54,802 bases of DNA from Clostridiales bacterium (GCA_017513085.1 JAFWDK010000020.1:1-54802); one strand, 5' to 3'. Shown: positions 7,666 to 47,000, counted from the stretch's first letter. Made by a program: numbers and translations. Notes: a model not told the origin generated them from the letters alone.

Positions 7666-7904
7666 AGATCATCCTGCCTCTTGCGCCCCCTGGTCGGAAG
7701 GCCTTTGTTTCTATTCAAATAGTATATTTCTTTTTCCGTGAAATGCAAATGAGTTAACAAAGTGCTTTTTTTTCGGTAAAATGGCATGTGCACATGTCCT
7801 GTCGGCGGTGCCGGCCGAAAAGAAAGCCACCGGACCCGAGGCAGGAGGGACGGTATGAAACTGTGCCCGCACGAGGCGGGTCATGAAAAGAAGAGGAATA
7901 TACG

Positions 7905-8576
7905 ATGGCGAGAATGCGCAAGAAGAGAAATCTGATCCCGAGGACCGAAGCATGTTCGGAGCACTTTTTTGACGATCCGACGCTGAATAAAGGAAAGTGG
8001 CGGGAGGCTTGCGGCATGCCGGAAGCGAAGGAACTGTATGTGGAGATCGGCTGCGGCAAAGGGCTCTTTTCCGAAAATATGGCGAAGAAGTATCCGGATG
8101 TCTGCTACGTGGCCATTGAGCGCGAACCTTCCTGTTGTCTTCTTGCCATGGAAAAAGCAACGCGCGAGAACCTGAAAAATCTGTTCTTCATCCGCGGCGA
8201 TGCCACCAATCTTCTCGAATTTTTCGGCGCAGAGGAAGTTGACCGGATCTACATTAATTTCTGCGATCCGTGGACCCGGCAGAATAAACCGAAGCGCCGC
8301 CTGACATACCGCGCGTTTCTGGATATGTACCGGCAGGTCCTGAAGAAGGGAGCGCAGATCCACTTTAAGACCGACAACGATGCGCTCTTTGATTTCAGCC
8401 TGGAAGAGTTTACCGCATCCGGCTGGGAGACGACTTGTGTGACGCGCGACCTGCATCACAGCGAGTGGGACGAGGAGAATATCCGTACCGAATTTGAAAG
8501 CAAATATGCCGAACAAGGGATCCCGATCAAGCGGTGTGTTGCCGTCATGGGCGAGAAACCGGAGAGCCGGGAGTAA
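7905..8576 (+). CDS. trmB: tRNA (guanine-N7)-methyltransferase
   Basis: VEIGCGKG SAM motif, INFCDPW...KRRLT, FKTDN, TEFE. Confidence 0.95.
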   Translation: MARMRKKRNLIPRTEACSEHFFDDPTLNKGKWREACGMPEAKELYVEIGCGKGLFSENMAKKYPDVCYVAIEREPSCCLLAMEKATRENLKNLFFIRGDATNLLEFFGAEEVDRIYINFCDPWTRQNKPKRRLTYRAFLDMYRQVLKKGAQIHFKTDNDALFDFSLEEFTASGWETTCVTRDLHHSEWDEENIRTEFESKYAEQGIPIKRCVAVMGEKPESRE

Positions 8577-8617
8577 CCGTCGGCCGGAGAGAAATGCTTT
8601 TTGTCAGAAAAAGTTGC

Positions 8618-8646
8618 TTGTGAAAAGCACTTCTCCCTTATATAAT
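8618..8646 (+). promoter_or_regulatory. sigmaA-like promoter
   Basis: TTGTGA-17 bp-TATAAT upstream of the ORF at 8730. Confidence 0.6.
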
Positions 8647-8729
8647 GTTCGTGTATTAAGAAGTCCGCTTGGATAGCGATGATGCGCAGGACGACCGGCG
8701 CACCAGGCGAAGAGAAAGAGGAATGAGAA

Positions 8730-9461: not shown

Positions 9462-9511
9462 AAATGAGTGCTTTTTCTTAAGAAGCGCGAATAGAAATGA
9501 AACAAAAAACA

Positions 9512-9556
9512 AGAGGCTCTGAAGGACGTTCGTCTTCCAGAGCCTCAACATTTTTA
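9512..9556 (+). terminator. Hairpin, probable intrinsic terminator
   Basis: GAGGCTCTG...CAGAGCCTC stem followed by a T-rich run. Confidence 0.5.
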
Positions 9557-10942: not shown

Positions 10943-12472
10943 ATGAAAGATGCAACACCGGTGAATAGAAAGAATCAAAATGTAACCGTAAAAGGAAGAA
11001 ACCCGATCCTGGGAATGGATTTCCCGGATCCCGACGTCATCTACGCGGACGGGTGTTTCTACATGATCAGCACCACAATGCATTTCTTTCCGGGCGGCCA
11101 GATCCTGAGAAGTTACGATCTGGTGCACTGGGAGCACGCTGCCTATGTTTTTGACAGCATTGACGGAACCCCCGCTCAGAAACTCACGGGCGAGGAAAAC
11201 ATATACGGCAAAGGAATGTGGGCCGGCTGCATAAGATACCATAACGGTGAGTTCTTCGTCGCTTTTTCCTGCAACGATACGCAAAAGACATATCTCTACC
11301 GCGCGGATTCTATCGAAGGACCATGGCGCAAAAACATCGTGGAAGGGTATTTCTACTATGACCTTTCGATGCTTTTTGATGAGGATCGTGTATACATGAT
11401 CCACGGACACAAAGAGGTGTTCATCACGGAGCTGAACAGCGAATTGACCGGGCCGAAAGAGGGCGGCCTGCACCGTCTTCTGATCAGCGATAAAGATAAC
11501 CCGATCCTCGGCTACGAAGGATCGCATATGTATAAGATCAATGGGGAATACTGGCTGTTCTCGATCCATTCGCTGGCTTCTCACTGGAAACGGGTCGAAG
11601 CGGCGTTCCATGCCGGATCCCTTGAAGATGATTTCAAGGGTGGCGATGTGCTGAACTTCTCGCTTCCCGACCGGCCGGACGGGTTCGCTCAAGGTGGCGT
11701 GGTCGAAGGGCCGGAAGGGGTCTGGCACGCGGTGCTGTTTAGAGATAACGGAGCGGTCGGAAGGATCCCTGTCGTGACCGGGGTCTCCTGGATCACAGGA
11801 GATAAAGGTGTGGAACTTATCGCATCCGAAGAGTTTGAGACGACTGACTTGAAGCCCGGTTACGAATATGCGCCGCTTTACGGAAGCGATGATTTTTCTT
11901 CTGCTACACGACGCGATTTCTGGCAGTTCAATCACGAACCGGTTCCGGAGAATGTGTGCTTCGGAAATGGTGAGCTGGCGATTACGACGGATAAAGTGTG
12001 CGACCGGATCACTTCCGCGCATAACACGTTGACGCAGCGGATGAAACTTCCCGAATGCGCGGCGGAAGTAACGATCGACGGAACGGACATGAAAAACGGA
12101 GATGTCGCCGGCCTGGCGGCTTTTCAGGGTGATTACGGCTATGTGGGGATCATGCGCGAGGAGGATCGGTTTTTTGCCGTGTTCGGACAAAAACCGGAAG
12201 ACGGAGCCGATGAGATCTGTGAACGCGTGAAATTGGATGCAACCGAAGATTTCGTGCCGCCGAAACTACGTGTCAGGCTCGAAGCAAGATTCGGCGAAAA
12301 AGATGAAGCGGAGTGTTTCTTCCTTGCCGGTAAGAAGTGGAGAAAGATCGGACCTGTTCATCCGCTTTCTTTCCGTCTGGACCACTTCACGGGATGCCGG
12401 TTCGGATTATTTTACTCCGCAAGCCTGGAATGCGGAGGGACGGCTCGCTTCAGTGCTTTTGTCTACGAATAA
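10943..12472 (+). CDS. Glycoside hydrolase family 43 (beta-xylosidase/arabinofuranosidase) with C-terminal GH43_C2 domain
   Basis: NPILGMDFPDPDVI, SYDLVHWE, GMWAG, YEGSHMYKING, WQFNH, HFTGCRFGLF. Confidence 0.9.
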   Translation: MKDATPVNRKNQNVTVKGRNPILGMDFPDPDVIYADGCFYMISTTMHFFPGGQILRSYDLVHWEHAAYVFDSIDGTPAQKLTGEENIYGKGMWAGCIRYHNGEFFVAFSCNDTQKTYLYRADSIEGPWRKNIVEGYFYYDLSMLFDEDRVYMIHGHKEVFITELNSELTGPKEGGLHRLLISDKDNPILGYEGSHMYKINGEYWLFSIHSLASHWKRVEAAFHAGSLEDDFKGGDVLNFSLPDRPDGFAQGGVVEGPEGVWHAVLFRDNGAVGRIPVVTGVSWITGDKGVELIASEEFETTDLKPGYEYAPLYGSDDFSSATRRDFWQFNHEPVPENVCFGNGELAITTDKVCDRITSAHNTLTQRMKLPECAAEVTIDGTDMKNGDVAGLAAFQGDYGYVGIMREEDRFFAVFGQKPEDGADEICERVKLDATEDFVPPKLRVRLEARFGEKDEAECFFLAGKKWRKIGPVHPLSFRLDHFTGCRFGLFYSASLECGGTARFSAFVYE

Positions 12473-12565: not shown

Positions 12566-14779
12566 ATGATGAAGAAGAAGGTATTTAGGACCGGATTGCT
12601 CGCTGCAGTTTCGGTCCTTGCTTTGAGTGTCCCTTTTTCCGGCGTGCTGGCGGATGAAGAGGACGTGGCGATCGATGAGACCAATTTTCCGGACGCGCTG
12701 TTTCGAAGCTATGTACAAAATGAGGTCGACACGAGCGGAGATGGCAAGCTCTCGAAAGTGGAACGGGAGAGTGTAAAGGAGATACCATTCGATGATTTGG
12801 ATGTTACTTCACTTGAAGGTGTGAAGTTCTTCCCGAATCTTGAGATCCTTACCGTTAACGGTGGTCGTCTGATGAGTCTTGACGTTTCGCAGAATCCGAA
12901 GATCAGGGAATTGTACTGCATGGCGAATCACCTTACGAGTTTGAATGTTTCAAACAATGCGGAACTTGAGATGCTGGTCTGCTCGGAAAATGAACTGAGA
13001 CAGCTTGATCTGTCTTCCAATACGAAGCTTGTGTCTCTTGCCTGCAATAACAACGAGATTTCAGAATTGGATCTAAGTCACAATCTTGCTCTGGAGGAGA
13101 TGGATTGTTCTTCGAACAAGATGAAGACGCTGACTCTTCCTCAAAATCCTAAGATGAAGAATTTGCTGCTGATGAGCAATAAGCTTGAGAAGATCGATGT
13201 TTCCGGTTTTCCGGAATTGCAGAATCTTGCGGTATCCGACAACCCGGTGCAGTCCCTGGATGTTTCGAAGAACCCGAAACTTGAGATGCTTCTGGTGGAT
13301 CAGACTAAGTTGTCTTCTTTAGATGTTACAAACTGCACCGGACTGAAAACACTGGCTTGCAACGCGTCTGAGATCGATAAGCTGGATCTTTCCCGAAACA
13401 AGGATCTCGAAGCACTTCGTTGCGATGAGACCAAGCTGACTTCTCTGGATCTAAAAGCACTGAAGAATCTAAGTCTGCTTACTTGCGCAGATGCTGAGCT
13501 TAAAGAACTGGATGTCAGCAAAAACGCGGAACTTGCCGCTATGGATTGTTCCGGAAACCATTTGGTTTCCCTGGACGTCAGTAAGAATGCGAAACTTGCT
13601 GAATTGTTCTGCTCGGGAAATCAGCTGACGTCATTGAATCTTGGCACAACGAATATGTTGACTTACCTGCACTGTGAGAAGAACAAGCTTTCTGCTCTGG
13701 ATCTCAGCGGGCAGGTGAATATTATTGAGTTAGCCTGCTCTGAGAATCAGCTTAGTGAACTGAATCTTGAAGGATTGTCCGATCTTGACGTCCTGGTTTG
13801 CGAGGAGAATAAATTCGAGAAGCTGGATATCTCCTACAGCTATGCGCTTGTTGATCTGGTCAATAACGTACCGCCGGAAAAGAAAGGCGATATCGTGGAA
13901 TACAGAAAAGAAGAGGGCGATGACCTTTGGCTTCTGAGCGTGAACAGTAATGTGGAACTGATCAAGGAAGGCACGCCGGGGGATCCTGGTGATCCGGGTG
14001 ATCCAGGCGATCCGGGCGATCCGGGTGAGCAACATACGTTTGTTGAGTTTGTTGAAAGACTCTATGTGATTGCTTTAAACCGTGAATCGGAGGAGAGCGG
14101 TAAAGAGTATTGGATGAACGAGATCAAGAGCGGCAGAAAGAATGGTGCGGACTGTGCACGCTTCTTCCTGACCGGTGAGGAGTTCCAAAACAGAAAACTG
14201 TCCGATGAACAGCTTGTCGATGTTCTTTACGCGACTTTCTTTGACCGTGAAGGCGAAGAAGACGGTAAGAAATTCTGGCTGGATCGCCTGAAGAATGGCG
14301 CAAGCCATAACGAGGTGATCAACGGATTTATTGATTCCACCGAGTGGTGCAATGTTTGCGCGATGTATGCGGTAAAGTCCGGTGCACCGACGGCCAAGGC
14401 GACAGTGCCTTCTGACCCTACGGTCAATTTCGTACTGGGATTCTACCTCAACTGCCTGGACCGTATGCCGGATCAGGACGGCTGGGACTACTGGAGTCTT
14501 GCTTTGACGAATCTGGAGCGTACCGGCTCCCAGATCGCAGACGAGTTCTTCAACTCTCCGGAGTTTAAAAACATGAATCTGAGTGATGCGCAGTTTATCC
14601 TCCGTGCTTATAAGACTCTTTTGAGCCGTGAAGCCGATGTTGAAGGTGGCAATTACTGGCTCGACAGAATGAAGGCCGGCATGACCAGACAGCAGGTCCT
14701 GGCTGCATTCTCCCAGAGCCCTGAGTTTACGGCACTCTGCAATTCTTACGGCATCGAACGAGGCGCGATCGAAGCTTAA
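12566..14779 (+). CDS. Secreted leucine-rich-repeat surface protein with PGD linker and C-terminal DUF4214 domains
   Basis: Signal peptide, IDETNFPD cap, many LxCxxNxLxxLD repeats, (GDP)n linker, FVERLY...LNRE..GKEYW repeats. Confidence 0.85.
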   Translation: MMKKKVFRTGLLAAVSVLALSVPFSGVLADEEDVAIDETNFPDALFRSYVQNEVDTSGDGKLSKVERESVKEIPFDDLDVTSLEGVKFFPNLEILTVNGGRLMSLDVSQNPKIRELYCMANHLTSLNVSNNAELEMLVCSENELRQLDLSSNTKLVSLACNNNEISELDLSHNLALEEMDCSSNKMKTLTLPQNPKMKNLLLMSNKLEKIDVSGFPELQNLAVSDNPVQSLDVSKNPKLEMLLVDQTKLSSLDVTNCTGLKTLACNASEIDKLDLSRNKDLEALRCDETKLTSLDLKALKNLSLLTCADAELKELDVSKNAELAAMDCSGNHLVSLDVSKNAKLAELFCSGNQLTSLNLGTTNMLTYLHCEKNKLSALDLSGQVNIIELACSENQLSELNLEGLSDLDVLVCEENKFEKLDISYSYALVDLVNNVPPEKKGDIVEYRKEEGDDLWLLSVNSNVELIKEGTPGDPGDPGDPGDPGDPGEQHTFVEFVERLYVIALNRESEESGKEYWMNEIKSGRKNGADCARFFLTGEEFQNRKLSDEQLVDVLYATFFDREGEEDGKKFWLDRLKNGASHNEVINGFIDSTEWCNVCAMYAVKSGAPTAKATVPSDPTVNFVLGFYLNCLDRMPDQDGWDYWSLALTNLERTGSQIADEFFNSPEFKNMNLSDAQFILRAYKTLLSREADVEGGNYWLDRMKAGMTRQQVLAAFSQSPEFTALCNSYGIERGAIEA

Positions 14780-15629: not shown

Positions 15630-15728
15630 CGGCCTGAGACTAGGTAGTCTCTGAAGGACCGAAGAAGAAAAAAGAGACGGGGACCTCCCCCGGGACAAGT
15701 GCTTTTGGAAAAGGATATGAGGTGAAAA

Positions 15729-16954: not shown

Positions 16955-18598
16955 ATGTTTGAAAATGCTCTTAGAGCGGGTGAAACAAGATTTGAGACGA
17001 AGCTGGTGGGTATCGAGGATCAAGCCGGCTTTGCTGCGGCGGCGCGTGCCCTGGCGGAAGGTGAAGTCGTAGGCATGCCGACGGAGACCGTGTATGGTCT
17101 CGGTTGCGATGCGAGAAATCCGGAGGCGGTGGCGAAAGTCTACGAGGCAAAAGGCCGTCCTTCCGATAATCCGCTGATCGTGCATGTGGCTAGTAAAGAA
17201 TCGATCCCGGAACTGGTTTCCGAGATCACACCGGTTGCCCGGGTACTGATGGATGCTTTTATGCCGGGTCCGATCACCGTGATCATGAAAAAATCCGACG
17301 TCATTCCTGCATGTGTGAGCGCCGGGCTTGATACAGTCGGGATCCGTTTCCCGATCCATCCTGTGGCACAGGCCCTGATCGCAGCATCGGGCGTGCCGGT
17401 CGCCGCACCTTCGGCGAATCTTTCCGGGAGCCCGTCGCCGACTAAAGCCGAGCATGTCATGAAGGATATGAATGGGCGTATCCCGTACGTCGTGGAAGGC
17501 GGGGAATGCCAGGTCGGCCTTGAATCGACCGTAGTCGATGCGACCGGAAACTGGCCGCAGATTCTCCGCCCCGGCGCAATTACGATGGAACAGATGGAGC
17601 AGGCACTTGCCGCGGCGGGCATCAGTAAGCCGGAGACGGTCGTGGCGCTTGAGAACAAAGCTGGCGAGGCCCCGCGTGCGCCGGGCATGAAGTACCGTCA
17701 CTATGCGCCTTCTTGCGAGGTGCACATCCTTGGTCAGGGCGATTTCGACCAGTATGAGGAATACTATAAAGAAGCGGTTGAACGAGAGATCATCGACAGC
17801 AGGACTCCGGTCGGCCTCTTCGTATCCGACACGATCGCAGCTGAGATCCAAGTGCTTTTTGAGGATCAAAAAGACAAGATCCTGTTTTATACTTACGGAC
17901 AGACCGATGACGTAGAGGCCGCGTCGCAGCACTTGTTCGACGGCCTTCGGGTCCTGGACGGGCAGGGCGCGGGCATCATTTTCGCTCCGGCGTTCCCGAA
18001 AGAAGGCTTGGGCGTGGCGTACATGAACCGTCTGGAAAAAGCGGCGGCCGAGAAGGTCAGCAAGGCGGAGGCGCCGAAGAACGAGCGGAAAGTGCTTTTT
18101 GTGTGTTCGGGAAATACGTGCCGGAGTCCGTTGGCGGAAGCGATCATGCGGCATCTTTGGAAAGCGACGGAGCCGCATGTGATGCTGGGGCAGCCGGGTG
18201 TTCAGGCGTCTCTGGAGGTTTCTTCGGCGGGCGTGGCGACTTCGGACGGGTGCTTCTATACGCGTTATTCCGAGGAGATCGCGGAGTATGAGTACGATGA
18301 GGACATTACCGGTGAGCGTTCGACGATGCTGACCGAGGATATACTGAAAGAACAGGATCTGGTGATCTGTGTGACCAATGACCATTCGCATTTTCTGCGG
18401 GAGCGTTTCCCGGATCTGAGCGACAAGATCTTCTCGTTTGAGGAGCTCCTGGAGGATAACTATATCGATGGCATCGACGGGGAAGTGCTGGATCCGTATG
18501 GCCGTGAGTACGAGGTGTACCAGAAGACGGCTTGGCAGATCGAGCAGATCCTGCGTGCGGTGTTGCCGGAGATCCTGAAAAAGTGGGAAATGACGTGA
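16955..18598 (+). CDS. sua5: Sua5/TsaC2 threonylcarbamoyl-AMP synthase fused to a YwlE-like low-molecular-weight protein phosphatase
   Basis: PTETVYGLG, KGRPSDNPLIVH, APSAN.SG, PGMKYRHYAP; C-terminal VCSGNTCRSP P-loop and DPYG in the same ORF. Confidence 0.9.
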   Translation: MFENALRAGETRFETKLVGIEDQAGFAAAARALAEGEVVGMPTETVYGLGCDARNPEAVAKVYEAKGRPSDNPLIVHVASKESIPELVSEITPVARVLMDAFMPGPITVIMKKSDVIPACVSAGLDTVGIRFPIHPVAQALIAASGVPVAAPSANLSGSPSPTKAEHVMKDMNGRIPYVVEGGECQVGLESTVVDATGNWPQILRPGAITMEQMEQALAAAGISKPETVVALENKAGEAPRAPGMKYRHYAPSCEVHILGQGDFDQYEEYYKEAVEREIIDSRTPVGLFVSDTIAAEIQVLFEDQKDKILFYTYGQTDDVEAASQHLFDGLRVLDGQGAGIIFAPAFPKEGLGVAYMNRLEKAAAEKVSKAEAPKNERKVLFVCSGNTCRSPLAEAIMRHLWKATEPHVMLGQPGVQASLEVSSAGVATSDGCFYTRYSEEIAEYEYDEDITGERSTMLTEDILKEQDLVICVTNDHSHFLRERFPDLSDKIFSFEELLEDNYIDGIDGEVLDPYGREYEVYQKTAWQIEQILRAVLPEILKKWEMT

Positions 18599-19892: not shown

Positions 19893-20717
19893 ATGAAAAC
19901 CATCATCGAAAGGAATATTTTTATGCAAGACGTGATCCAACTCCTGAAAGAACGGCAAGCCCAACTCGAGAAAGTGCTTTTGCAGGCGGAACAAGACCTC
20001 GCGAAGCTGCCGGAGGGAAGGCTTAAGTTTTCCTTCAGCAACAAAAAACTGCAATATTACTATACTCGTTCAGGTGACGAGAAGAAGATGTATATTCCTT
20101 CTTCCAAACGAGATTTAGTGAATCAGCTTGCGCAACAGAACTATTTGAACGAGTTGATTCCTTTGGTAAAAAAAGAACTGCAGGATATCAGTAGTTTCAT
20201 GAAGAAGAATCATCTTGGGGCTGCGGAGCAAGTATTCCGTGAAAGTCACCCGCACCGTAAATCGTTGATTTCTCCGTACATGGTTGATAATGAAACATTT
20301 GCAGAGCTTTGGCTCGAGCATCCTTTTGATCCGAATCCGGCATTTCCCGAGGAACTGATCTATCCGACCCGCCGTGGAGAGCGCGTTCGGACCAAGGCCG
20401 AGGCCCTGATAGCGGATATGTATTATGATCTCGGAGTCCCATACAAGTACGAGTGTCCAGTCCGACTTTTAAATGGTAAGCAAAAGTATCCCGACTTTAC
20501 CCTACTCAACAAAGTGACCCGAAAAGTGTATTTTCATGAGCACCTCGGATTGCTCGACGATTCCGGCTACAGAAAGGACAATATGATCAAGCTTTCCCAA
20601 TACCGACAAATAGGGATCTATACCGGCAAAAACCTGATACTCACTCACGAAACAAAGGACAGTCCTCTGGATCTGGTCACTTTGCGGAAAAATACGATTG
20701 AACTGTTTCTGAAATAA
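19893..20717 (+). CDS. Uncharacterised protein: helical N-terminus plus C-terminal PD-(D/E)XK-like (Vsr/DUF559-type) nuclease domain
   Basis: GERVRTKAEALIAD...VPYKYE...YPDFT...FHEHLG motifs; alternative start at 19923. Confidence 0.65.
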   Translation: MKTIIERNIFMQDVIQLLKERQAQLEKVLLQAEQDLAKLPEGRLKFSFSNKKLQYYYTRSGDEKKMYIPSSKRDLVNQLAQQNYLNELIPLVKKELQDISSFMKKNHLGAAEQVFRESHPHRKSLISPYMVDNETFAELWLEHPFDPNPAFPEELIYPTRRGERVRTKAEALIADMYYDLGVPYKYECPVRLLNGKQKYPDFTLLNKVTRKVYFHEHLGLLDDSGYRKDNMIKLSQYRQIGIYTGKNLILTHETKDSPLDLVTLRKNTIELFLK

Positions 20718-20767: not shown

Positions 20768-21017
20768 TTACGGTCTAAAACAGAGAAAAGCATCGTTTGG
20801 CCCGTAAATTGGGGGTGGTAAGTCTTGGCTAACTCTGCTGTTTACGGGCCAGATTACTAAAAACGTTGATTTAGCCCGTAAAAACAAGTGCTTTTTCATG
20901 GGATTTACGGGCTGGAATGAAGAAATCGTTGATTTAACCCGTAAATATCAAAGAAATAATGCAAAAAACGTAGAATATTACGGGCTATTTTGCCAATATT
21001 GTCGATCTTGCCCGTAA
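20768..21017. repeat. Array of four 40-bp palindromic units TTACGG[GT]-N26-CCCGTAA with variable loops and spacers
   Basis: Units start at 20768, 20842, 20905, 20978; spacers 34, 23, 33 nt. Confidence 0.8.
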
Positions 21018-21249
21018 TAGAGATGGTTAGTGTTGACTAACCGACAGAAGGACTACGGTCTGATCCGGAAAAAGGAGTTTTTTTGACCGTAATGTATCGA
21101 TGAATTTGTTTTGTTGAAGTGCACATCGTTTTTCTCGAAAAGCACTTCCGCGCGGCGGTCTTCGTGCCCTTGAGGTGTTCTTCGGGTGTAGGGGCGAACA
21201 AAAAGGTACCCCGCAGCGCTCGATCGCGCTACGGGGTGATCGATAGGGC

Positions 21250-21630: not shown

Positions 21631-22593
21631 GGCGGCTGCCGAGGAGGCGATGATCGCGATCTCGACGGCGATGATAGCTGAGATGATGGTGCTGATCGCG
21701 CTGTCGCGAACGGCGCTGTTGCCTGCATCGGTGTACGATTCGATCACAAGAGCGCAAGCGATCAGATCACGGATACGCTTGCCGGCGCCCATCGCGCCCA
21801 TGCCACGGATCTTTCTCAGCTTTTTACTCGTCTCGTGGATCATAGAAGCAACTTCCTGAAGATCCTCCTCGCGCACCAGCATAGCGATGGAAGCAATAAC
21901 CGAGAACGCATCCCCGGAAAAACGCAGCCCCACCTGCTTCAGTGCTTTTTGAGTTGAAACGACGCGCAAAGCTTTGTCTTCCGGACGTCCGTCAAAAATA
22001 CTGGTGATGCAAGCCATATACTGGATCCTGTTTTTCAGACGGTAGTAGTCGTGCAGAGCCCGGAAGTCATCTTCGCAACGGCGCGCGATCTGTGTTTCGC
22101 TATAATCGGAAAGCGCCATGAGTACGCAGTTGCTAAGATCTTCGCGTCCGGTGATCATGGGATGATCTCTACGGATGAGCTTATAGATCTCACGTGTTCT
22201 GGAAACGATACGGCTGTAGTCCGCGGGATCCGCATTGCTGTAGATCATATTGGCGGCCAGGACAAGATAATCGGAATTGAAAAACTTTTCGTCCAGCGCA
22301 CTGTGGATGAAACGGATAGTGTCCATCGCTACTTGCGGCTCCTCGCTCATGCTTACGGTGGCCGCGATGACCTGGCTGGCATTACCATGACCGAGCGTGG
22401 AGAAAATGCCCGTATTCGAACGGACGACCTTCTTGGCATCTCTCAACCTCTCCGGTGAAACCACGAAATTTCGCCCGATAAAAGCAGCGGCACAGGCAGA
22501 TGCCTCTAAACTGGTGTTCAAGACGTAGGCGCTTTTGGCGGCGCGGAAATTGGACTCAAAGATTTCAATGCTTCGGTTGATGTTGTTTAACAT
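21601..22593 (-). CDS. DUF4003 family protein
   Basis: YKLIRRDHPMITGRED motif and poly-Ala/Ser C-terminus; GAGGTG RBS. Confidence 0.75.
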   Translation of the reverse strand: MLNNINRSIEIFESNFRAAKSAYVLNTSLEASACAAAFIGRNFVVSPERLRDAKKVVRSNTGIFSTLGHGNASQVIAATVSMSEEPQVAMDTIRFIHSALDEKFFNSDYLVLAANMIYSNADPADYSRIVSRTREIYKLIRRDHPMITGREDLSNCVLMALSDYSETQIARRCEDDFRALHDYYRLKNRIQYMACITSIFDGRPEDKALRVVSTQKALKQVGLRFSGDAFSVIASIAMLVREEDLQEVASMIHETSKKLRKIRGMGAMGAGKRIRDLIACALVIESYTDAGNSAVRDSAISTIISAIIAVEIAIIASSAAAASAAAASSS

Positions 22594-24322: not shown

Positions 24323-24386
24323 TTTGCGTGGCAGTGCTTTTTGCAAAAAGATGGGCGGATCCGATGCGATTCAACCATCAGTAACA

Positions 24387-35695: not shown

Positions 35696-37474
35696 TCAGC
35701 CGGCATGAGAGACGTAGTAGAAAAGCTCATCTGCATCTATGCCCTGGATCGTGTAGGAATAGTCACCATCCTGGACCAGATCGAATTTGACGCAGTAACC
35801 ATCGTCTTCGACTTCTGTGCAGACATTAAAATAGATGGCGGAGTAATTGGAATCAAGAAGATACAGTGACAAGGTCGTGTCAGGCGCGATCGTGACATCC
35901 TCGATCTCCTCGCCGGTCGAGATATCGACCTTTTTACCCTTGATCTCCTGCTTGGTCGTAAATACAGTAGCGCTACCTTCCAGATAAGGATACAAGGGAT
36001 GCAGGATGCCCTCGCCGCCGATCAAGGACATGTACTGCCTCATGTATACAGTGCCGACAACTCCGAAATTGTAAAGTCCGACAGTGAAGTTGGCCGGGTC
36101 GATACAGAAAGCCTCCGTGAAGTCAGCCGGAACTTCGTCCTGAATGAAAGTCAAGCCGTTGCCTGTGATCTTGTAGACATACGCATACGTATAGACATCT
36201 TCCGGACAATACAACAAATACAGGTAATAGGACTCGCCGTCGTTGAAGACGACGAGATCTTCGTACGAGCTACCTTCAAAAATGTCGGTATTCGGCGCAT
36301 GGAAGATCGTACCGTTGATGTTGAGCTCGATATCCTTGATTTCATAGTAGTGATCCTCGTCATATACGGCACGTACGGTATCCGTTGTGCCATTCTCATC
36401 GAAATCCCACGTAATGGTCTCGTTAACGCTGTCCGGCTTCAGATTGAAACGCTCCGGCGCAGAACCGAAGAAGCTCATGTCAAAAATCTCCGGATGGTCT
36501 GCCGCACAGATCAGAAAATCGTAGTAGGCATTCGAAATGATAAAGTTGTTATAAGTCAGACCGAAAGCAACGTTTCCGCTCTCGATATCACTGAGCATCT
36601 GCGTTTCATTGGCAGGATCATGGAGAAGACCCGAAATGAGAGAAGCAAGTGCTTTTGGATCCTTAACGACATCCGAGTAATTGATCTTTTCGCCGGTCTG
36701 CGTGTAGAAAGCGAAGGACTCGTAAACGTAATCGTCGTGGTCGCCGACTGCGGTTTCGCCGATCACGGAGATGATCTGGCTGTCATTGCGGCACGGGTAT
36801 AAGAAGTAGTTGAAAGCAGACGAATCGAGTTTGGACATGTCCTGCTTTTCCTGTGCGATAAATGCTTCGCGGGCCGCATCGTACTGGTCAGCGACCGCAT
36901 TCTGCCTCGGGTTGATCGCGCCGTCGAGCACATTGAAAAGATCTTCATACGAGTCGTCGTTTCCTAAGTCAAAAGCATCGATGTAGCAGCGGACGTAATC
37001 GGGTGATAAGATGTCTTTTCCGCTATTCTTGTGCGTCGCGCCGTACACATAGAAGATCGGGAATACCTCGAAGTCGACATATTCCAGACTTCGGTCGACC
37101 TTGAACGAATCTTTGTGTGGGAGTACCTGGGCGGAAGGCGCGGAAGTATCCGAAGGTTCAGATGTCGTATCGGAAGTCGCCGAGGTCAGACTCTTGGTCG
37201 GTGTTTTGGCCGTGGTCGTATCTGCAGTTGTATCTTCAGTCGTATCCTCCGATGTTTCTTCCGTAGTGGTATCTTCGGTCGTTTCTTCGGTGGTCTCGGA
37301 CGGATCGTCGGTTTCATCCGTATCGTCCGTTTCTTCCGTGGTCGTTACCTTAGTCTTGTCGGCTGACTCCCGGATCGTCCGGGTCTCTTTTTTGTTGTCT
37401 TTGTCTTTGCAGCCCGTAACCGCCAAAGACAAAACCATCGACATGCCAAGGAGAAGAACAAGTGCTTTTTTCAT
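35696..37474 (-). CDS. Lipoprotein paralog 2
   Basis: VTG-C lipobox, TRTIRES, INYSDVVKD, FGLTYN, WDFDENG. Confidence 0.8.
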   Translation of the reverse strand: MKKALVLLLGMSMVLSLAVTGCKDKDNKKETRTIRESADKTKVTTTEETDDTDETDDPSETTEETTEDTTTEETSEDTTEDTTADTTTAKTPTKSLTSATSDTTSEPSDTSAPSAQVLPHKDSFKVDRSLEYVDFEVFPIFYVYGATHKNSGKDILSPDYVRCYIDAFDLGNDDSYEDLFNVLDGAINPRQNAVADQYDAAREAFIAQEKQDMSKLDSSAFNYFLYPCRNDSQIISVIGETAVGDHDDYVYESFAFYTQTGEKINYSDVVKDPKALASLISGLLHDPANETQMLSDIESGNVAFGLTYNNFIISNAYYDFLICAADHPEIFDMSFFGSAPERFNLKPDSVNETITWDFDENGTTDTVRAVYDEDHYYEIKDIELNINGTIFHAPNTDIFEGSSYEDLVVFNDGESYYLYLLYCPEDVYTYAYVYKITGNGLTFIQDEVPADFTEAFCIDPANFTVGLYNFGVVGTVYMRQYMSLIGGEGILHPLYPYLEGSATVFTTKQEIKGKKVDISTGEEIEDVTIAPDTTLSLYLLDSNYSAIYFNVCTEVEDDGYCVKFDLVQDGDYSYTIQGIDADELFYYVSHAG

Positions 37475-37513: not shown

Positions 37514-39274
37514 TCATCCCCACATATCCTGCTCGATGCCGTAGAATGCTTCGAAATCGGGAACGCCTGCGATAAGTGTGTTATAGTCTTCATCTTCGGT
37601 GACCTTGAAAACGTACTGTTCACCGATGGTGTTGGTGGTGGGGAGTTTCTCCAGCACGATCTCGCCGCGCTCAGGCGAATAGCCGACGATAGCGAAAGTC
37701 GTCTCTGCCGGAACGGTGACTTTTTTATCCGTAGGTTTGCCGAGAAAGTCTGCCATTACGCCGGCAAGCTCTTGCTTCGAGATCGGCCCCGGTGCGTAGG
37801 AGGTGTAGTATTCGCTAAGATTCGTCGGCAGGCCGTCGCCCTGTGTGAGCGAGACGGGCATATAGTTCAGATGGAACGAAAGCATGAAAGAGCGATAGTA
37901 AGTGTTACAAAAACTCGGATCCATGTAATACTTATCCTCGATGAATTCTCCGATAAAACCGCAGAACTCCGGCTCATTTTCACCGTTCAGACGGTACACA
38001 TACGTGTCTTCTTCGGCATCGGTCGCTTTGCAGGTGCAGTACAGGTTGTAGTTGTTGCCGTCAAATACGAGAAAAGCACGTTCGAAGTTGGCTGTCAGAT
38101 CGTTATCAGCCGGATCTGTAAACTCGTACGTTTGTCCGTTGATCCCGATGACAAGCTTGGCGGAAGGGAAGTCGTATCCATCCTTGGTATACTCCTCGAA
38201 GCTGACTTTCAAAACATCCGCCTTGCCGTCGCCCGTCACGTCCTTGGAAAGCGTCTGGTCGACATCGAAGAAAAGCGTGTAAACATCCGGCGTCTTGCCG
38301 AAATAGTCCATGTTCACCAGGTCCTCGTGGCCGGCGACCGGGATCTTGAGCCAGATCTGGGAAGAAAACAAATCGGGATTATAGAGATAGATGCCGTCGT
38401 AAGTAAGACCGAAGGCGGCTTCACCGTCCGAAAAATCGTGCGCGATCATCTTGGCCGTATCGCTTCCGAAAAAGGAGGCGAAAACTCTTTCCTCTACGAC
38501 CTTTGCAAAAGCACTTCTGTCTTTGACCACGTCGTCGATCGTGAGTGGGGCCTGAGTCTTGGTATTGTAGTTATAAGTGTAGATCTCGCCGCAGTTGATG
38601 ATGGCAAAAGAAACGATCTGACTGTCCGTGCGGAAGCGATCGAGCGAATAGTCGAAGGTGTCGGATTCGGGGCTGGTGCCTGCGGCGTCCGCTTTATTCA
38701 GATCTTCGACACACTTGTTATACTCGCTTGTTTTCGAAGCGATAAGCGGATCGAATATTTCCTCGTAGAGTTTCTCTTCGAAGTCGGAATAATTCTTGTC
38801 GTTGAAGTGAAGGAACGGGCAGTCCAGCGTGCTTGTCGCACTCTTGCCGTTATCGGAAGTCTTGTCTTTCACGACAGTGCCCTTCCGGATATGGTCGACA
38901 TAACTGAGAAGATAAGCGGGGACTTCATTCGGATCTGCCGACGGGTTCGTACCGGATGACTCCGACGTGTCTGAAGTGTCCGATGTATCCGATGTCTCTG
39001 ACGTTTCGGATGTCTCGGATGTCTCGGATTCGGATCCTGAGGTTTCTTTTGTGGTATCTTCGGAAGAAGCACTGGTCGGAGTTTCCGTGGTTTCCTCGGT
39101 AGTCTCTTCCGTGGTCTCCTCGGAGGTCTCTTCGGTAGTCTCCGTCTTGGAGGTGGAAGATTCTTCCGGATCTTTGGTTTCGCGTGTAGTTCTGGTGCCG
39201 GAAGGTTCACGTCTGCATGAACACATGGATAACACCAAAACCGCGCTAAGGATCAGCGCAATTTGTTTCTTCAT
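37514..39274 (-). CDS. Lipoprotein paralog 1
   Basis: MCS-C lipobox-like, TRTTRET, LTIDDVVKD, FGLTYDGI, DVTGDG. Confidence 0.8.
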   Translation of the reverse strand: MKKQIALILSAVLVLSMCSCRREPSGTRTTRETKDPEESSTSKTETTEETSEETTEETTEETTETPTSASSEDTTKETSGSESETSETSETSETSDTSDTSDTSESSGTNPSADPNEVPAYLLSYVDHIRKGTVVKDKTSDNGKSATSTLDCPFLHFNDKNYSDFEEKLYEEIFDPLIASKTSEYNKCVEDLNKADAAGTSPESDTFDYSLDRFRTDSQIVSFAIINCGEIYTYNYNTKTQAPLTIDDVVKDRSAFAKVVEERVFASFFGSDTAKMIAHDFSDGEAAFGLTYDGIYLYNPDLFSSQIWLKIPVAGHEDLVNMDYFGKTPDVYTLFFDVDQTLSKDVTGDGKADVLKVSFEEYTKDGYDFPSAKLVIGINGQTYEFTDPADNDLTANFERAFLVFDGNNYNLYCTCKATDAEEDTYVYRLNGENEPEFCGFIGEFIEDKYYMDPSFCNTYYRSFMLSFHLNYMPVSLTQGDGLPTNLSEYYTSYAPGPISKQELAGVMADFLGKPTDKKVTVPAETTFAIVGYSPERGEIVLEKLPTTNTIGEQYVFKVTEDEDYNTLIAGVPDFEAFYGIEQDMWG

Positions 39275-41289: not shown

Positions 41290-42825
41290 ATGAAGAGAGT
41301 TAAGGTCGTACGCCTTGTTTCCGTTATTGTTCTGATCGTGATGTTCCTGGCAATGTCACTTTACCTTTTCCTGCCAAGAAGAGGTGACTCGGATTCGGGA
41401 GTTACTGCCGTATGCTTCATCGACGAAGACAGGCTTTTCCCGCAGATGGATTACAGCCAGCTGTTCTCGGCACTGGACATTTCGTCCGATTATTCAGTCG
41501 GGGAGGGACTTTCCCTCGAACAGATGAGAGAACGGGTCGACGACGTGGCGAAAGAGAAGAAAGCGGACCGGATCGTTCTTCTTTGCGACGGAAGCTATGC
41601 GGAATCCGGACTTGCCCTGGCCAAAGAGGAACCGAAGATCAAGACATTGGTCCTGATGACGCCGGTGATCCCGGAAGAAGCCGACCTGAGCGAACTCGGC
41701 ACACAGGTGCCGAAGACCGATATATGCATTTTCGCGGAGAAAAAAGCACACGCCAACAGTTTGTATGAGCGTCTGTCGGGTGAGGATACCAAGTTTACCC
41801 AGGGCGTGTTTGCTGACGCGCAGGGGATGTGCCTATATATTTCCCCGGATGCGACGCGTTATTTCGGGACCTATTCCGGTTTCTTCAAGTCGCCCGCTCT
41901 TTCGGCCTCCGCGACGCTGAATCACCCTGTGGTCCAGTCGTACCTGGCCAATTACCTGAAGAATCACTGCCTTGAGCAGGATGGACTGTCCCGTGCACCG
42001 ATGTGGATCTGGGTCATGAAAGTCCTCTGCACCACACTTGTGGTCGTAGCTTTTTTTGTTTATGTCGCGACACTTCCTTCCGGACAGAAGAAAACGCACG
42101 AGAAAGATGCAGTCGAGAAAGCGGAAGAAGAGACCCGCCGCACAGCAGACGGGCGCCTCAAACTCAAGAACCGTTCCATCTTCGTAAAATATAAAGCATC
42201 GCTGATCCATCTTCTGGGCCTCGAACTACTTCTGGGCGCGATCTTTGCCGTGATCGGTGCTTTTTTCGTAGGAGGAAGAGTACAAAATGTCAAGCACGTA
42301 CTCTTGATCTGGATCTTTGTATCGTTCTTCAGCAGTGCTTTTTTCTTATTGCGATACATCCGCAAGCTACCGAAGAAAGAGGCGCGTGCGAACCGGGCGA
42401 TGTTCCCGCTTCAGATCGTCTATGTGGCCGCTTTGATCCTGGATATCTTCCTTTTAACATTGTTATGGAGGGGCGCGGGATTCTTGAAATTCAGCCTTTT
42501 GTCGGTGATTGCGGTGCTTCTTTCCGTGATGCTCGGTGTCTCGATCTATATGCTGGATCTGACCGACAATTTCTACATGAAAACGCAAGGGCAGGGAAAC
42601 GGGGTCCTGGATTCGATAAGATTTTCCGCGATACGTTTCGTTCCGATAGTGATTGTTTTGCTTTTCTCGATTATAATGGATGAGGAAATATGTTCTTTAC
42701 AGATCATGATCCTGTCCGTCTCTTTGCTGGTCAGTGCTTTCTTAAGGAGGATCGCAAAGCGGGGCGCGCTTGGGGATGTGCTCTCGGTAGTGCTTTATGC
42801 GTGCCTGTACTGGATGATGTTCTGA
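41290..42825 (+). CDS. Multi-TM membrane protein with extracellular alpha/beta-hydrolase-like region
   Basis: N-terminal TM, DRIVLL...ALA..EPKIKTLVLMTP, then about 8 TM helices. Confidence 0.65.
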   Translation: MKRVKVVRLVSVIVLIVMFLAMSLYLFLPRRGDSDSGVTAVCFIDEDRLFPQMDYSQLFSALDISSDYSVGEGLSLEQMRERVDDVAKEKKADRIVLLCDGSYAESGLALAKEEPKIKTLVLMTPVIPEEADLSELGTQVPKTDICIFAEKKAHANSLYERLSGEDTKFTQGVFADAQGMCLYISPDATRYFGTYSGFFKSPALSASATLNHPVVQSYLANYLKNHCLEQDGLSRAPMWIWVMKVLCTTLVVVAFFVYVATLPSGQKKTHEKDAVEKAEEETRRTADGRLKLKNRSIFVKYKASLIHLLGLELLLGAIFAVIGAFFVGGRVQNVKHVLLIWIFVSFFSSAFFLLRYIRKLPKKEARANRAMFPLQIVYVAALILDIFLLTLLWRGAGFLKFSLLSVIAVLLSVMLGVSIYMLDLTDNFYMKTQGQGNGVLDSIRFSAIRFVPIVIVLLFSIIMDEEICSLQIMILSVSLLVSAFLRRIAKRGALGDVLSVVLYACLYWMMF

Positions 42826-42852
42826 TTATGTAGTTAACGGGAGGAAAGGCGT

Positions 42853-43857
42853 ATGTCATCGACGATCAAGGATGTGGCCAAAATGGCCGGTGTGTCCATC
42901 TCAACAGTTTCGAAGTTCATTAACGGTGGTAACGTGCTGGAGGAGAATCGTGTGCAGATCGAGAACGCCATCGAGACCTTGAACTACCAGGTCAATACCG
43001 TTGCGCGCGGCATGAAGACCAGAAAGACGATGAGTGTCGGAGTCCTGATCCCGAGCCTTGCTGACTACTACGGCGTTTCCATTCTTTCGTGCATCGACCA
43101 GGAGCTCTATAACTCCGGCTACAGCACGATCATATGCGACTATTCTCAGACGGATCCTTCCGGTGCTTCCGACAAGATCAATTTTCTGATCAATAAGCAG
43201 ATCGACGGCATCATCATGCAACCGATCAACGTGCATCAGGAAGACATCGATCGTGCGGCCAAAGCGGACGTGCCGATCGTCTTTGTCGATATTGAAGATC
43301 CGACAATCGCCTGCGATTCCGTCACGATCGACAACGTTGACATCGCGCACCGCATCACGCAGCATTTCATCGACAACGGACACAAGCGTATCGGCTTCAT
43401 CGGCGGCCAGGAAGGCGTCAACACCACGGATGACCGTGTCCGCGGCTACCAGGAAGCTCTCGAAAAGGCCGGCATTACGCCTTCTGCGGAACTGATCCAT
43501 CTTGAAAATGTCTCCGAAGAGAGCGGATATCTCGCCATGATGCGTTTCATGAATCTCAAAAATCCGCCGACAGCGGTCTTCGCCAGCGGTAACGACCTTA
43601 CCTGCGGAGCCGTCATGTATGCTAACGAGAAGCATATCAAGATACCGGACGATCTTTCTTTCGTCGGCTTTGAGAATCAGACTATCGCGCACGTCTACAA
43701 CCCGACGCTCACGATCGGTATCCAGCCCATCCGCAAGATCGGCCAGACCGCAGCGCGCATGCTTCTCGAAAGAATGCGCGGGGAGTACGAAGGCGCGCCG
43801 AGAAACATCCGGCTGAAAGCCGTCATCGATTTCGGTGCATCTGTGAAGAAGCTCTGA
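42853..43857 (+). CDS. LacI-family transcriptional regulator
   Basis: TIKDVAKMAGVSISTVS HTH, GHKRIGFIGG, IPDDLSFVGF. Confidence 0.95.
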   Translation: MSSTIKDVAKMAGVSISTVSKFINGGNVLEENRVQIENAIETLNYQVNTVARGMKTRKTMSVGVLIPSLADYYGVSILSCIDQELYNSGYSTIICDYSQTDPSGASDKINFLINKQIDGIIMQPINVHQEDIDRAAKADVPIVFVDIEDPTIACDSVTIDNVDIAHRITQHFIDNGHKRIGFIGGQEGVNTTDDRVRGYQEALEKAGITPSAELIHLENVSEESGYLAMMRFMNLKNPPTAVFASGNDLTCGAVMYANEKHIKIPDDLSFVGFENQTIAHVYNPTLTIGIQPIRKIGQTAARMLLERMRGEYEGAPRNIRLKAVIDFGASVKKL

Positions 43858-44025
43858 GACGGATCCGGGAGACCTACGCGATCCGTGCGCTTCTGCTCGT
43901 TCAGATAGCGCTCTATGAGGCGAATTCAAAGTTTTTGTGAAAGAATGTAAAATTCCTTTTGTTCCCCTTCTTTACATGGTATACTTCGGAAAGGAAGAAG
44001 AGCTTTTAGAAGAAGGAGACGGTTT

Positions 44026-47000
44026 ATGAAGAAATTTTCCACAGTCGCTTGCTGCGCGATTGCAGCCTGCATGGCGGTAGCAGTGCTTTTGGCGCCGAAG
44101 AAGGCGGATCGAAAAGTACTGGCCAACGCGTTAGTCCCCGGTAAGAATGATATACCGATCGACGAGTCGCATTTCCCGGACGAAGGGTTCCGTAACGGAG
44201 TCAGAAGATATGACACCGATAATAATAGTGTTTTAAGTCCTTCAGAGCGGGACATGAAAAATATGTATATAGAAAACCAATCATTTACGTCCATGGTAGG
44301 TATTCAATATTTTCCAGATCTGGAATCCCTTACGCTGGTCGGTTGTAACGCGCCGAATATCAATCTGACGGATGCCATGGGTGTGACGGACCTTTACATC
44401 AGAGATGGTGAGAATACCGATCTTACAATCACAACCAAGGCTTTTCTTAAGAATCTGAAGATCGAATCCACGCCGATCACATGGCTTGACCTGCAGGGTA
44501 TGCTGAGTCTTCAGAAACTGACGCTGGAATATACCAAGATCCCGGTGCTGAGGCTGTCCAGTGTGTCGAACCTGAAGACGCTGGAGCTTCACAACAACAT
44601 GATCACCGATCTTGATATTTCCCGAAACAAGAAACTTGAGACCATAGACTGCAACGAGATGCGTCATAAATCAGACTATGCGCTTCTGGAGTCTTTTACC
44701 GTGGGCGGTGCAACAGCACTGAAGACGATCGATGTGAGTCATCACGATATCGGAGAACTGGCATTTACGGATAATCCCAACTTGACGAAGATCAATTGCA
44801 ATTACAATAATAATCTGACCAAACTGGATCTGTCCGGTGCATCGGCCCTGGTCACGCTGACCGCGAAAGACAACAAGCTTGCTTCGCTGGATCTGACGCA
44901 TAACCCGGCCCTGGTATCTGCGGAAATTGATTCTTATGACGACAGAGACCTGTCCGTCGGAAAACTGGATCTGTCCAAGAACACGGAACTTCAGGTCCTG
45001 AACTGTGAAAATCTCGGTATCACGGAGCTCACCTTCCCGAGTTCCGGCACGAGCAAGATGACGAATCTTCACTGTAGTCATAACAAGCTGACATCCCTGA
45101 ATCTGAGTAATCTGGTTAATCTTGAGGAGCTTGGCTGTGCCGATAACAATATTTCCTCTCTGATCATGCCGAAGAATATGCCCAACCTGACATACGTAGA
45201 TATAGAAAAGAACTCGATTCCTTCAATAAATCTATCGACCGCAACGAAACTTCGGGCCCTCGGATGCTCCGAAAACAATCTCTCTTCACTGGATGTCACC
45301 GCCTGCAAAGACCTGTACAAGCTTCATTGCGATAGTAACGGCATTTCGAAGCTGGATCTTTCGAAGAATACGAATCTGACCAATCTTGAGTGCAGTTATA
45401 CAAAACTTACATCTCTGGATCTTTCCAACAATACCTTGCTCGAGAGAGTGCGTTGTGTGCATAGAAGTACCGGTGAAAACGATACTTCTCCGAGGATCAA
45501 GACTTTGAAGGCAAAGAATCTTCCGAATCTGACGTACTTATCCTGCGAAGGCAACGATATCGCAACGCTGGATTTTTCCGGGGACACGGCGCTCGCAGAA
45601 CTCTACTGTATAAACTGCAATACCGAAAAACTGGTGCTGGCCAATAATACGTCATTGAAAACACTATGGTGCTATAACAACAGGATCAGTGTACTCGATC
45701 TGACAAATGTGAAGAATCTTGAGAGCTTAAGCTGTTCGAGTAACAATCTTGTAAACCTGGATCTTACAGGTTGTTCGAAGCTTAATAGAGTGATTGCCGC
45801 GGGCAATAAGCTTAAGACGCTGATCGTTAAAGGATGTGTCTCACTCGAGGAGATCAACTGTTCCAATAATAGCATTACTTCTCTGAATGTCTCAGATTGT
45901 GTGAAACTTCGAACACTCGAAGCAAAAGTGAATTCCCTTTCATCGTTAACGCTGACCGGAGCAGTATCTCTGCAAAAAGTGCATGTGGAAAAAAACCAGC
46001 TTACGTCCTTAGTGGTGAAGGATCTGACAAAACTGAAGGAACTATACTGCGAGGATAATAAACTTGAGACAATGACCTTGTCCAACCTGCCTTCGCTGGA
46101 AAAGCTGTACTGCAGCTATAACAGCCTCAGAAGTCTGAATGCGACCGGAGCACCGAATCTAACGAGGCTGGATTGCTCGTTCAACGACGAGATCACTTCG
46201 CTTACGATCGATAAGAACAATATGCTTTCCATGCTGAGCTGTTTCGGAAATAAGATCAGCTACCTGAAGATTGGGGTAAACCCATACATGAATGCATGCT
46301 TCAACGGGCACAAGACAGAATGCTTCTTCTCCGGTCGAGAGCACGGTGCTTTGGGAAACCATTTCGTTCCTCTTGAGAGCTCCGAATACTATGGCAAGGC
46401 CATGATCCAATGCGACAGGGACGTTCTGATCATAACGACGGGCAATACACCGACACCAACGAAGGCTCCGACAAAGACTCCGACCAAGGTTCCGACCAAG
46501 ACACCGACCAAGGTTCCGACCAAGGTTCCGACCGGTGCGCCGACCAAGACACCGACGGGAACCCCTTCAAAAGCACCTACAAAGACGCCGACGAAGGCGC
46601 CAACCGGTGTTCCGACGAAGACGCCTACCAAGTCACCGACACGGGCGCCGACAGGAAGACCTACCAAGACACCGACCGGTGTGCCGACCAAGGTGCCAAC
46701 AGGAACACCTACCAAGGCCCCGACCGGTGCGCCGACCAAGACACCGACAAAAGTACCGACAGGTGCTCCGACAAACAAGCCGACCGTGTCTCCGAAGCCG
46801 GGAGATCCGACGCCGACACCGAACCCGCAGAAAGAACCGACCTTCAAAGATTTCGTGGAGAGATTGTATGTCGTTGCCCTGAACCGTGCTTCTGAGCCGG
46901 AGGGTAAAGCTTTCTGGGTTTCGAAGGTTGAGAACGGTGAATACAATGGTGCTGACTGTGCGCGCTTCTTCCTGCTGGAAGCTCCGGAGTTTATGAACCG

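Follow-up and report, generated by a model that had tools for sequence, protein, structure and literature searches.

A genus-restricted, orientation-free DNA word in Clostridia-type Bacillota as a candidate uptake signal

Why should one nine-base word, AGTGCTTTT, recur 20 times in the window, the whole 54,802-nucleotide stretch of a Clostridiales bacterium (GCA_017513085.1 JAFWDK010000020.1:1-54802) that was analyzed here and that forms contig C15 of source genome G000 (36 contigs, 3,059,185 bases)? An earlier note on this DNA had listed 20 copies against an expectation of about 0.4 and had suggested a Chi-like site, a DNA uptake signal or a site for a nucleoid protein. All 20 positions and strands proved exact (15 on the plus strand and 5 on the minus strand), and 100 dinucleotide-preserving shuffles of the window gave a mean of 0.47 copies and a maximum of 2. 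The 8-mer GTGCTTTT, of which further copies had been reported, numbered 30 in the window (20 plus, 10 minus). Our tentative answer, which rests on the anatomy and distribution of the word, is that AGTGCTTTT may be the core of a DNA uptake signal in a genus of Bacillota, comparable to the DNA uptake sequence (DUS) of Neisseriaceae and the uptake signal sequence (USS) of Pasteurellaceae.

Abundance, placement and extent of the site

In the 3.06 Mb of the source genome AGTGCTTTT was present in 752 copies, divided 378/374 by contig strand, which makes it the top 9-mer of G000; the next unrelated 9-mer had 383 copies. GTGCTTTT was the top 8-mer (1178 copies), and the top 10-, 11- and 12-mers all extended the word (AAGTGCTTTT, 344; AGTGCTTTTGC, 136; AGTGCTTTTGCC, 71). 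Markov models of order 0, 1, 2, 3, 4, 5 and 6 predicted 27, 26, 40, 46, 70, 152 and 364 copies respectively, an excess of 10.7 to 29.5 times over orders 0 to 4, and order 7 alone approached the observed count (662 expected) because its component 8-mers are already inflated by AGTGCTTTT itself. Genes were called crudely, as 2379 open reading frames (ORFs) picked by codon score and covering 88.9% of the DNA, with ORFs of fewer than 80 codons omitted; for a codon null, synonymous codons were shuffled inside each gene 60 times, which preserved the proteins and the codon usage of each gene. Coding sequence held 354 sense and 252 antisense copies versus 22.0 and 19.5 under this null (maxima 29 and 30). 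The exact word thereby reached 14.9 times the null in coding sequence, whereas most of its one-mismatch variants lay at 0.4 to 2.7 times, the exceptions being GGTGCTTTT (5.2 times), AGTTCTTTT (4.75 times, 302 copies) and AGTGCTTTG (3.3 times). The over-representation that the earlier note had seen in the window is thus genome-wide and is explained neither by codon usage nor by a Markov model, with 606 coding copies against 41.5 under the null. In the literature outside subscription journals, the top-ranked occurrences of the 9-mer or its complement were primers or constructs, and no description of the motif was found.

The word sits both between and within genes. As far as the crude gene calls allow frames and intergenic positions to be assigned, 147 of the 752 copies (19.5%) lay outside or at the edge of gene calls, in 11.1% of the genome, and three frames were favored within genes, namely sense AGT-GCT-TTT (encoding SAF, 176 copies), sense x-GTG-CTT-TTx (xVL, then F or L, 156 copies) and antisense AAA-GCA-CTx (KAL, 208 copies), versus 21, 19 and 25 copies in the other three, which encode Cys, His and Ser-Thr. 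The earlier note had been right to describe intergenic copies together with copies in the xVL, SAF and KAL frames, and these three dominate throughout the genome. Along genes, the position of the word was flat over deciles. Pairs less than 100 bp apart were no more frequent than expected (20 versus 19); 19 of the 20 pairs were inverted (P = 2e-5) and three formed perfect hairpins with a 9-bp stem.

The conserved unit extends beyond nine bases. Flanks were tabulated separately for copies outside genes (n=144) and for copies in the SAF (176), xVL (156) and KAL (208) frames, and all four contexts had A or C at -1, were G-rich at -3 and -4, had A or C at +11 and almost never C at +12, and then showed A at +14 (0.47-0.56), G at +15 (0.47-0.69, with C <=0.08) and A at +17 (0.42-0.57), giving the common 3' flank AGTGCTTTT N5 AG N A. 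Since the four contexts differ in frame and in coding strand, the flank is a property of the DNA and not of the encoded protein. Furthermore, the near-cognates AGTTCTTTT, GGTGCTTTT, AGTGCTTTG and AGAGCTTTT bear the same flank, whereas the unrelated control word TCTTCTTTT does not. The unit is an asymmetric site of ~20 bp, in which a strict core of 9 bp is followed by a weaker flank on the 3' side, with the rough consensus (G)(G)n[A/C]-AGTGCTTTT-nn[A/C][G, not C]nAGnA.

Genus restriction, dialects and turnover

The best relatives of the FtsH protein encoded in the window share 46 to 62% identity with it; they are mostly Bacillota and include many Clostridia. In 23 other genomes of the genus AGTGCTTTT was present in 122 to 1006 copies, compared with 9 to 61 for the reversed-word control. 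In 96 genomes from seven sister genera of the family there were 8 to 79 copies, about equal to controls, and 12 genomes from three other families of the order had 13 to 41. Enrichment of the word is specific to the genus: all 24 genomes of the genus show it, and the 96 and 12 outgroup genomes are at background.

Six members of the genus are low in AGTGCTTTT, with 122 to 235 copies (G006, G008, G009, G014, G064 and G070). Dialects were sought in samples of 285 to 400 kb each from G008, G014, G009 and G070, as well as from the motif-rich genomes G013 and G007; G006 and G064 were left out of this sampling. The outstanding word of G009 was AGTGCATTT, with 65 copies in 378 kb versus 2.1 expected. 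Genome-wide, it had 388 copies in G009, where it is dominant, 322 in G010 and 302 in G017; G061 and G018 had 63 to 78 copies, and the remaining 19 genomes had 17 to 43 (28 in G000). G010 and G017, sisters in an ftsH tree, have kept the T form as well, in 408 and 432 copies, and AGTGCATTT is co-dominant there. The flank of the G009 dialect is unchanged (+12 G 0.46, C 0.05; +14 A 0.48; +15 G 0.66; +17 A 0.51). In G008 a further word, GGATCTTTT, was 3.7 times denser than in G000, and the flank was present in G008 and absent in G000; the composite GGATCTTTT-N5-AG-N-A had 94 copies in G008 and 93 in its sister G064, 5 in G009, 4 in G070 and 3 in G007, the reversed control giving 0 to 1. In G007, which belongs to a distant clade (77% identity to G000), the top 9-mer was the canonical core with the same flank, and in G014 the canonical word, sparse as it is (25 copies in 360 kb), was still the most over-represented 9-mer. 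Judged from these comparisons, the three dialects (AGTGCTTTT, AGTGCATTT and GGATCTTTT) follow the ftsH tree and share one common flank; the tree itself, built from one gene at the nucleotide level and midpoint-rooted, calls for caution. From dialect to dialect, one to four positions of the core vary, and a conserved CTTT/TTT together with the 3' flank is kept. In G070 the top words were GGTGTAGGTG, GTCGGAGTCGG and GCGTAGGCGT, found 14 to 33 times in the 400 kb sampled; they bear no relation to the motif and may stem from a repetitive coding or tandem element.

One contig of the source genome is devoid of the word: C36 (98,990 bases) has 0 copies versus 25 expected (P about 1e-11). A relaxase and a serine recombinase gene lie at its start, and it also carries ABC transporter genes, a second AddAB-like pair, gdh, ald and genes for cell-wall polysaccharide. 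When 8 kb of it was compared with the 23 other genomes of the genus, no match exceeded 68 to 73% identity, and G000 has separate copies of its own of those genes on C17, C22 and C18. This low identity and the duplicated genes argue that C36 is foreign to the genus, probably because the contig was mis-binned or stems from a large recent import. The tetranucleotide signature does not clearly single it out (0.923, compared with 0.93 for C32 and 0.94 for C15). The commonest words of C36, GATCTTTTC and GGATCTTTTC, recall the G008/G064 dialect.

Retention was assessed against G013, the closest relative of G000, for which 205 kb of 257 kb aligned at a mean identity of 80%. In this alignment 30 sites of AGTGCTTTT were shared, 27 were found only in G000 and 22 only in G013. 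Between 49 and 51% of motif sites were fully conserved, compared with 12 to 25% at five flanking offsets and 23.5% of all 9-mers, and per-base identity was 0.83-0.86 in the motif versus 0.75-0.77 in its flanks. The comparison of G000 with G007 gave 15 shared sites, 18 in G000 only and 25 in G007 only, against a background of 16.7%. Within the window, 10-11 of the 13-14 alignable sites were identical in G013, some of them inside alignments of 66% identity, three differed and 6-7 were unalignable. Conservation at orthologous positions, which the earlier note had proposed as a check, is therefore borne out, in that AGTGCTTTT is kept two to three times more often than neighboring 9-mers. These alignments indicate that the site is maintained, yet that about half of its copies turn over between species. 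In G013 the motif was denser in DNA unaligned to G000 (0.51 per kb) than in aligned DNA (0.29 per kb), and the highly conserved ftsH region, covered in 21 genomes, held one copy at one place only (28735, in G012). A higher density in less conserved DNA is a likeness to known uptake sequences, which the available part of one study describes as biased to permissive regions (10.1101/2025.10.24.684340).

Strand polarity, uptake machinery and competing explanations

The earlier note had remarked on the 15:5 strand ratio and on the replichore polarity of Chi and KOPS. GC skew is pronounced in G000 (about 0.1), with 77% of coding bases co-oriented with it, and local skew was used to orient 2.87 Mb. 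On the G-rich strand AGTGCTTTT was split 416:325 (56.1%), whereas 664 frequent 9-mers had a median of 61% and 73% of them were more skewed than AGTGCTTTT. The sense:antisense ratio was 274:193 (58.7%) in leading-strand genes and 78:58 (57.4%) in lagging-strand genes, and because the sense fraction is equal in both classes, the small strand excess reflects a mild sense preference multiplied by gene orientation. Purine-rich words of the same genome were strongly co-oriented with the skew (GAGAAGAAG 187:17, GATGAGAAG 127:11, AGAGAAGA 369:58), and the detection of truly polar words such as GAGAAGAAG and GATGAGAAG shows that the orientation call works. Thus, the 15:5 ratio is real in the window but does not hold generally, being 56:44 genome-wide, a rate at which 15 or more of 20 copies on one strand has P = 0.067, and we regard it as a local fluctuation. 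The replichore-polarized reading fails on the same 56.1% polarity and equal sense fractions.

Without replication polarity, the defining feature of Chi and of the sequences that guide FtsK or SpoIIIE (FtsK-orienting polar sequences and SpoIIIE recognition sequences, KOPS/SRS) is gone. It is improbable that AGTGCTTTT is the Chi site of the genus, which AddAB would read on single-stranded DNA in order to switch from degradation to RecA loading, even though addA and addB are adjacent in G000 (C14:192329-199515), the chromosome is enriched in the motif and retains it, its density of 1 per 4 kb resembles that of Chi in E. coli, and Chi sequences vary among taxa. Chi is active in a single orientation, and its known sites, such as GCTGGTGG in E. 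coli and AGCGG in B. subtilis, are co-oriented with replication; AGTGCTTTT, unlike them, lacks this co-orientation and is longer and flanked, its informative positions spanning ~20 bp versus 5 to 8 nt in known Chi, and AddA also occurs in outgroup genomes that lack the motif. A KOPS/SRS-type or other architecture-imparting polar sequence would be a frequent short word of about this length, and the window's 15:5 ratio would suit it; such words are more than 80% polar, however, and with AGTGCTTTT at 56% in a genome whose purine-rich words reach 86 to 92%, we give this explanation hardly any credence. The words GAGAAGAAG, GATGAGAAG and AGAGAAGA are better candidates for guiding FtsK/SpoIIIE than AGTGCTTTT. 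It is just as implausible that the word is a by-product of codon usage or amino-acid composition, or what is left of a dispersed mobile element: its three dominant frames do encode common residues, but the synonymous-shuffle null leaves all except 41.5 of the 606 coding copies unaccounted for, intergenic copies and copies on both coding strands carry the identical flank, sequences are unrelated past ~20 bp, and sister genera with similar genomes are without the motif. Dispersed repeats of the repetitive extragenic palindrome or miniature inverted-repeat transposable element type were ruled out, as conservation stops within ~20 bp and 80% of copies are genic.

A more serious competitor, if an unlikely one in our judgment, is some other genus-specific, orientation-independent system, be it an abundant chromosome-binding protein, akin to the nucleoid protein of the earlier note, a 'self' tag used in defense or repair, or a repair bias that converts near-cognates, as has reportedly been proposed for the cyanobacterial palindrome HIP1. 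The missing polarity, the flank of about two helical turns, the genus restriction, the dialects and the retention would fit such a system equally well, as would the random spacing of the word and an uptake machinery that is not specific to the genus. However, no nucleoid protein or defense system is known to yield ~750 exact, asymmetric, genic 9-mers in permissive frames; HIP1 and drives of the methylase/Vsr type act on palindromes, whereas this site is asymmetric over ~20 bp; and the explanation comes without a candidate protein.

We rank an uptake signal first because of the combination of core and flank, the use of both orientations, the permissive frames, the lineage limits, the dialects and the absence from foreign DNA, an anatomy that fits such a signal as far as sequence can tell. 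Under this reading, a sequence-specific and orientation-independent process acting on DNA would enrich the site throughout the chromosomes of the genus. A surface or pilus-associated receptor would bind it on double-stranded DNA, pilus retraction together with ComEA and ComEC would import the fragment, and DprA and RecA would recombine it. Fragments that bear the motif would be imported more often, so that new copies would spread by molecular drive where coding allows, and as the specificity of the receptor drifted the genome would follow, giving rise to dialects. That the organism is competent, that its uptake is biased towards the motif, and what its receptor might be are matters that we infer. 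Components for such a route are encoded in G000. A type IV pilus cluster of Gram-positive type on C1 comprises PilB, PilT, PilC, PilM, PilN, a 396-aa protein and five pilins of 66, 75, 185, 178 and 69 aa; a second PilT-family retraction ATPase lies in the window (185-1273, minus strand), apart from the main cluster on C1; and genes for a prepilin peptidase (PilD), ComEA, ComEC, DprA, AddA and AddB are present elsewhere. A Tad/Flp cluster (C14:160587-165783), with a CpaF-like ATPase, a TadB/C-like protein, a 60-aa Flp pilin and an FHA-domain protein, is a possible second DNA-uptake filament.

Several observations weigh against an uptake signal. PilT-family genes occur in 119 of 120 sampled genomes of the family, nearly all of them without the motif; the pilT that the earlier note had offered in support therefore carries no weight, and pilus genes were dropped as a genus-specific correlate. 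ComEA, ComEC and AddA were likewise rejected as correlates, being present in the two outgroup genomes tested, G031 and G033. The machinery does not discriminate between the readings, and nothing ties it to the motif. The two larger minor pilins, of 185 and 178 aa, were compared across the genus as possible dialect-linked receptors and showed no pattern, with 39 to 50% identity in most members whatever the dialect, 80-85% in G013 and 56-63% in G070, and neither was found in the motif-rich G010 (95% complete, 150 contigs). G014, G006 and G070 are only weakly enriched for AGTGCTTTT, and no alternative dialect was found in 360 kb of G014 or in 400 kb of G070. The density of the word, 0.25 per kb, is about four times below that of the Neisseria and Haemophilus uptake sequences, which occur roughly once per kb. 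Its spacing is Poisson-like (coefficient of variation 1.03 versus 1.01 ± 0.04 for random placement), whereas even spacing has reportedly been described for USS. The depletion in islands that the earlier note had proposed as a check holds for the whole of C36 but not within contigs, where no motif-free island was exceptional and the largest gap, 31 kb, fell within the 21 to 37 kb given by random placement. The close inverted pairs hold only ~5% of copies, and an upstream complementary GCACT arm was found at only 6 of 144 intergenic copies; on this count, and with 75 intergenic copies after gene ends and 66 after gene starts, an origin of the intergenic copies as terminator halves seems unlikely. 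In the available part of one study, about half of known uptake sequences are said to sit in terminators (10.1101/2025.10.24.684340). Finally, a literature search on Firmicutes and Clostridia found no report of sequence-specific uptake in Bacillota, returning only reviews and work on Neisseria and Pasteurellaceae.

Gram-positive competence is taught as sequence-blind, and to our knowledge two families, both proteobacterial, are the only ones for which sequence-selective DNA uptake has been documented. Against this background it is possible, and a claim we hold still more guardedly than the reading of the word itself, that the motif represents the first DNA-uptake-signal system outside Proteobacteria: a bipartite signal of ~20 bp with at least three species-group dialects in a largely uncultured, Clostridia-type genus of Bacillota, which would imply motif-selective transformation through a type IV or Tad pilus and a species barrier within a dense community. 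If so, natural transformation would be predicted in a lineage where none is known, the three natural dialects would amount to a ready-made specificity experiment, and co-variation with dialect would give a handle on the receptor. The word would also give a practical marker for sorting the genus's own DNA from foreign or mis-binned sequence in its metagenome bins, and it already flags C36. If AGTGCTTTT is not an uptake signal, it points to a new system, independent of orientation, that can shape 0.2% of a genome.

Copies within the window and comparison with known systems

Seven of the window's copies lie outside gene calls or next to called genes. Those at 7761..7769 (plus), 8623..8631 (minus, inside the uncalled ORF 8604-9551 on the minus strand) and 9467..9475 (plus) are all conserved in G013, the first as an identical site, and so are the copy just upstream of prfA (15698..15706, plus; prfA 15729-16829) and the one between ssb (23401-23904) and dnaB (24955-26559) at 24333..24341 (plus), the latter being present in one of four covering genus genomes. 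The copies at 20887..20895 (plus) and 21138..21146 (minus) have no alignment in G013. Sense copies in the SAF frame are found in the GH43 gene 10943-12472 (12452..12460, plus), where G013 reads ACCGAGTTT, in the minus-strand ORF 37514-39274 (38507..38515, minus; conserved in an alignment of 66% identity) and in ORF 41290-42825 (42334..42342, plus; no G013 alignment). In the xVL frame, the tsaC-like gene 16916-18598 carries two sense copies, at 17851..17859 (plus; GGTGCTCTT in G013) and at 18091..18099 (plus; conserved in an alignment of 76% identity), and further sense copies lie in ORF 19893-20717 (19973..19981, plus) and in the leucine-rich-repeat (LRR) protein gene 44026-47586 (44082..44090, plus), both without a G013 alignment, and in tilS (26560-28071) at 27510..27518 (plus), where G013 reads AGTGCTGCT. 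Antisense KAL copies occupy tilS again (27276..27284, minus; conserved), the LRR/DUF4214 gene 12566-14779 (13453..13461, minus; no G013 alignment), the DUF4003 gene 21601-22632 on the minus strand (21941..21949, plus; conserved, 74% identity) and, twice, the minus-strand ORF 35696-37486, at 36648..36656 (plus; no G013 alignment) and at 37461..37469 (plus; conserved in an alignment of only 66% identity).

Four successive ORFs of 616, 584, 596 and 586 aa on the minus strand at 31906-39274 have no Pfam or NCBIfam match and may form a tandem paralogous family; they are 65 to 68% identical to G013, and two motif copies in them are kept. Large LRR (internalin-like) and probably surface proteins are encoded at 12566-14779, 44026-47586, 47641-50382 and 51013-54048, the first and the last of these with DUF4214 repeats. 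The segment 1871-5259, which encodes an ABC ATPase (2145-2804) and has ORFs of MacB-like permease type (2817-5242), matches G013 at 97.8 to 99.4% identity, while the remainder of the window aligns at 65 to 91%; on this identity the segment looks like a recent exchange between the species of G000 and G013. It contains no copy of the motif.

Among known systems, HIP1 (GCGATCGC), the hyper-abundant palindrome of cyanobacteria, resembles AGTGCTTTT in being a lineage-specific word that occurs in and between genes and has no proven function. HIP1 is palindromic, whereas both core and flank of AGTGCTTTT are asymmetric, for which reason an iterated palindrome of this type was discarded.

The USS of Pasteurellaceae, a 9-bp core (AAGTGCGGT) with flanking AT tracts, is closer: it too combines a 9-bp core with a weaker, helically spaced, one-sided flank, and most of its copies are genic and in a few permissive frames. 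The AAGTGC of the Hin-type USS even equals the first six bases of the 10-mer AAGTGCTTTT, a resemblance that is probably coincidental because the phylum is unrelated. Unlike the USS, AGTGCTTTT has a G/A-rich flank at +12 to +17 in place of AT tracts, and its spacing is random and not even. For Pasteurellaceae, the available part of one study predicts ComN/PpdA as the receptor (PMC12616744).

The DUS of Neisseriaceae (10-12 bp) differs from AGTGCTTTT in its proteobacterial host, in a density about four times higher and in the many copies that form inverted-repeat terminators, which are few here. ComP is the specific DUS receptor in Neisseria, whereas no ComP-type candidate emerged from G000. In other respects the two correspond: both are short asymmetric words that recur hundreds to thousands of times, on either strand, both are restricted to a lineage, and both are absent from foreign DNA, a property on which the accessible text of one report draws when it uses DUS-poor regions to find integrative and conjugative elements (PMC7371117). 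The likeness extends to the dialects, which in both cases differ at one to a few positions, follow phylogeny and keep a conserved part; for the DUS, the portion of the source available describes dialects that track phylogeny and retain a CTG core (PMC3630211).

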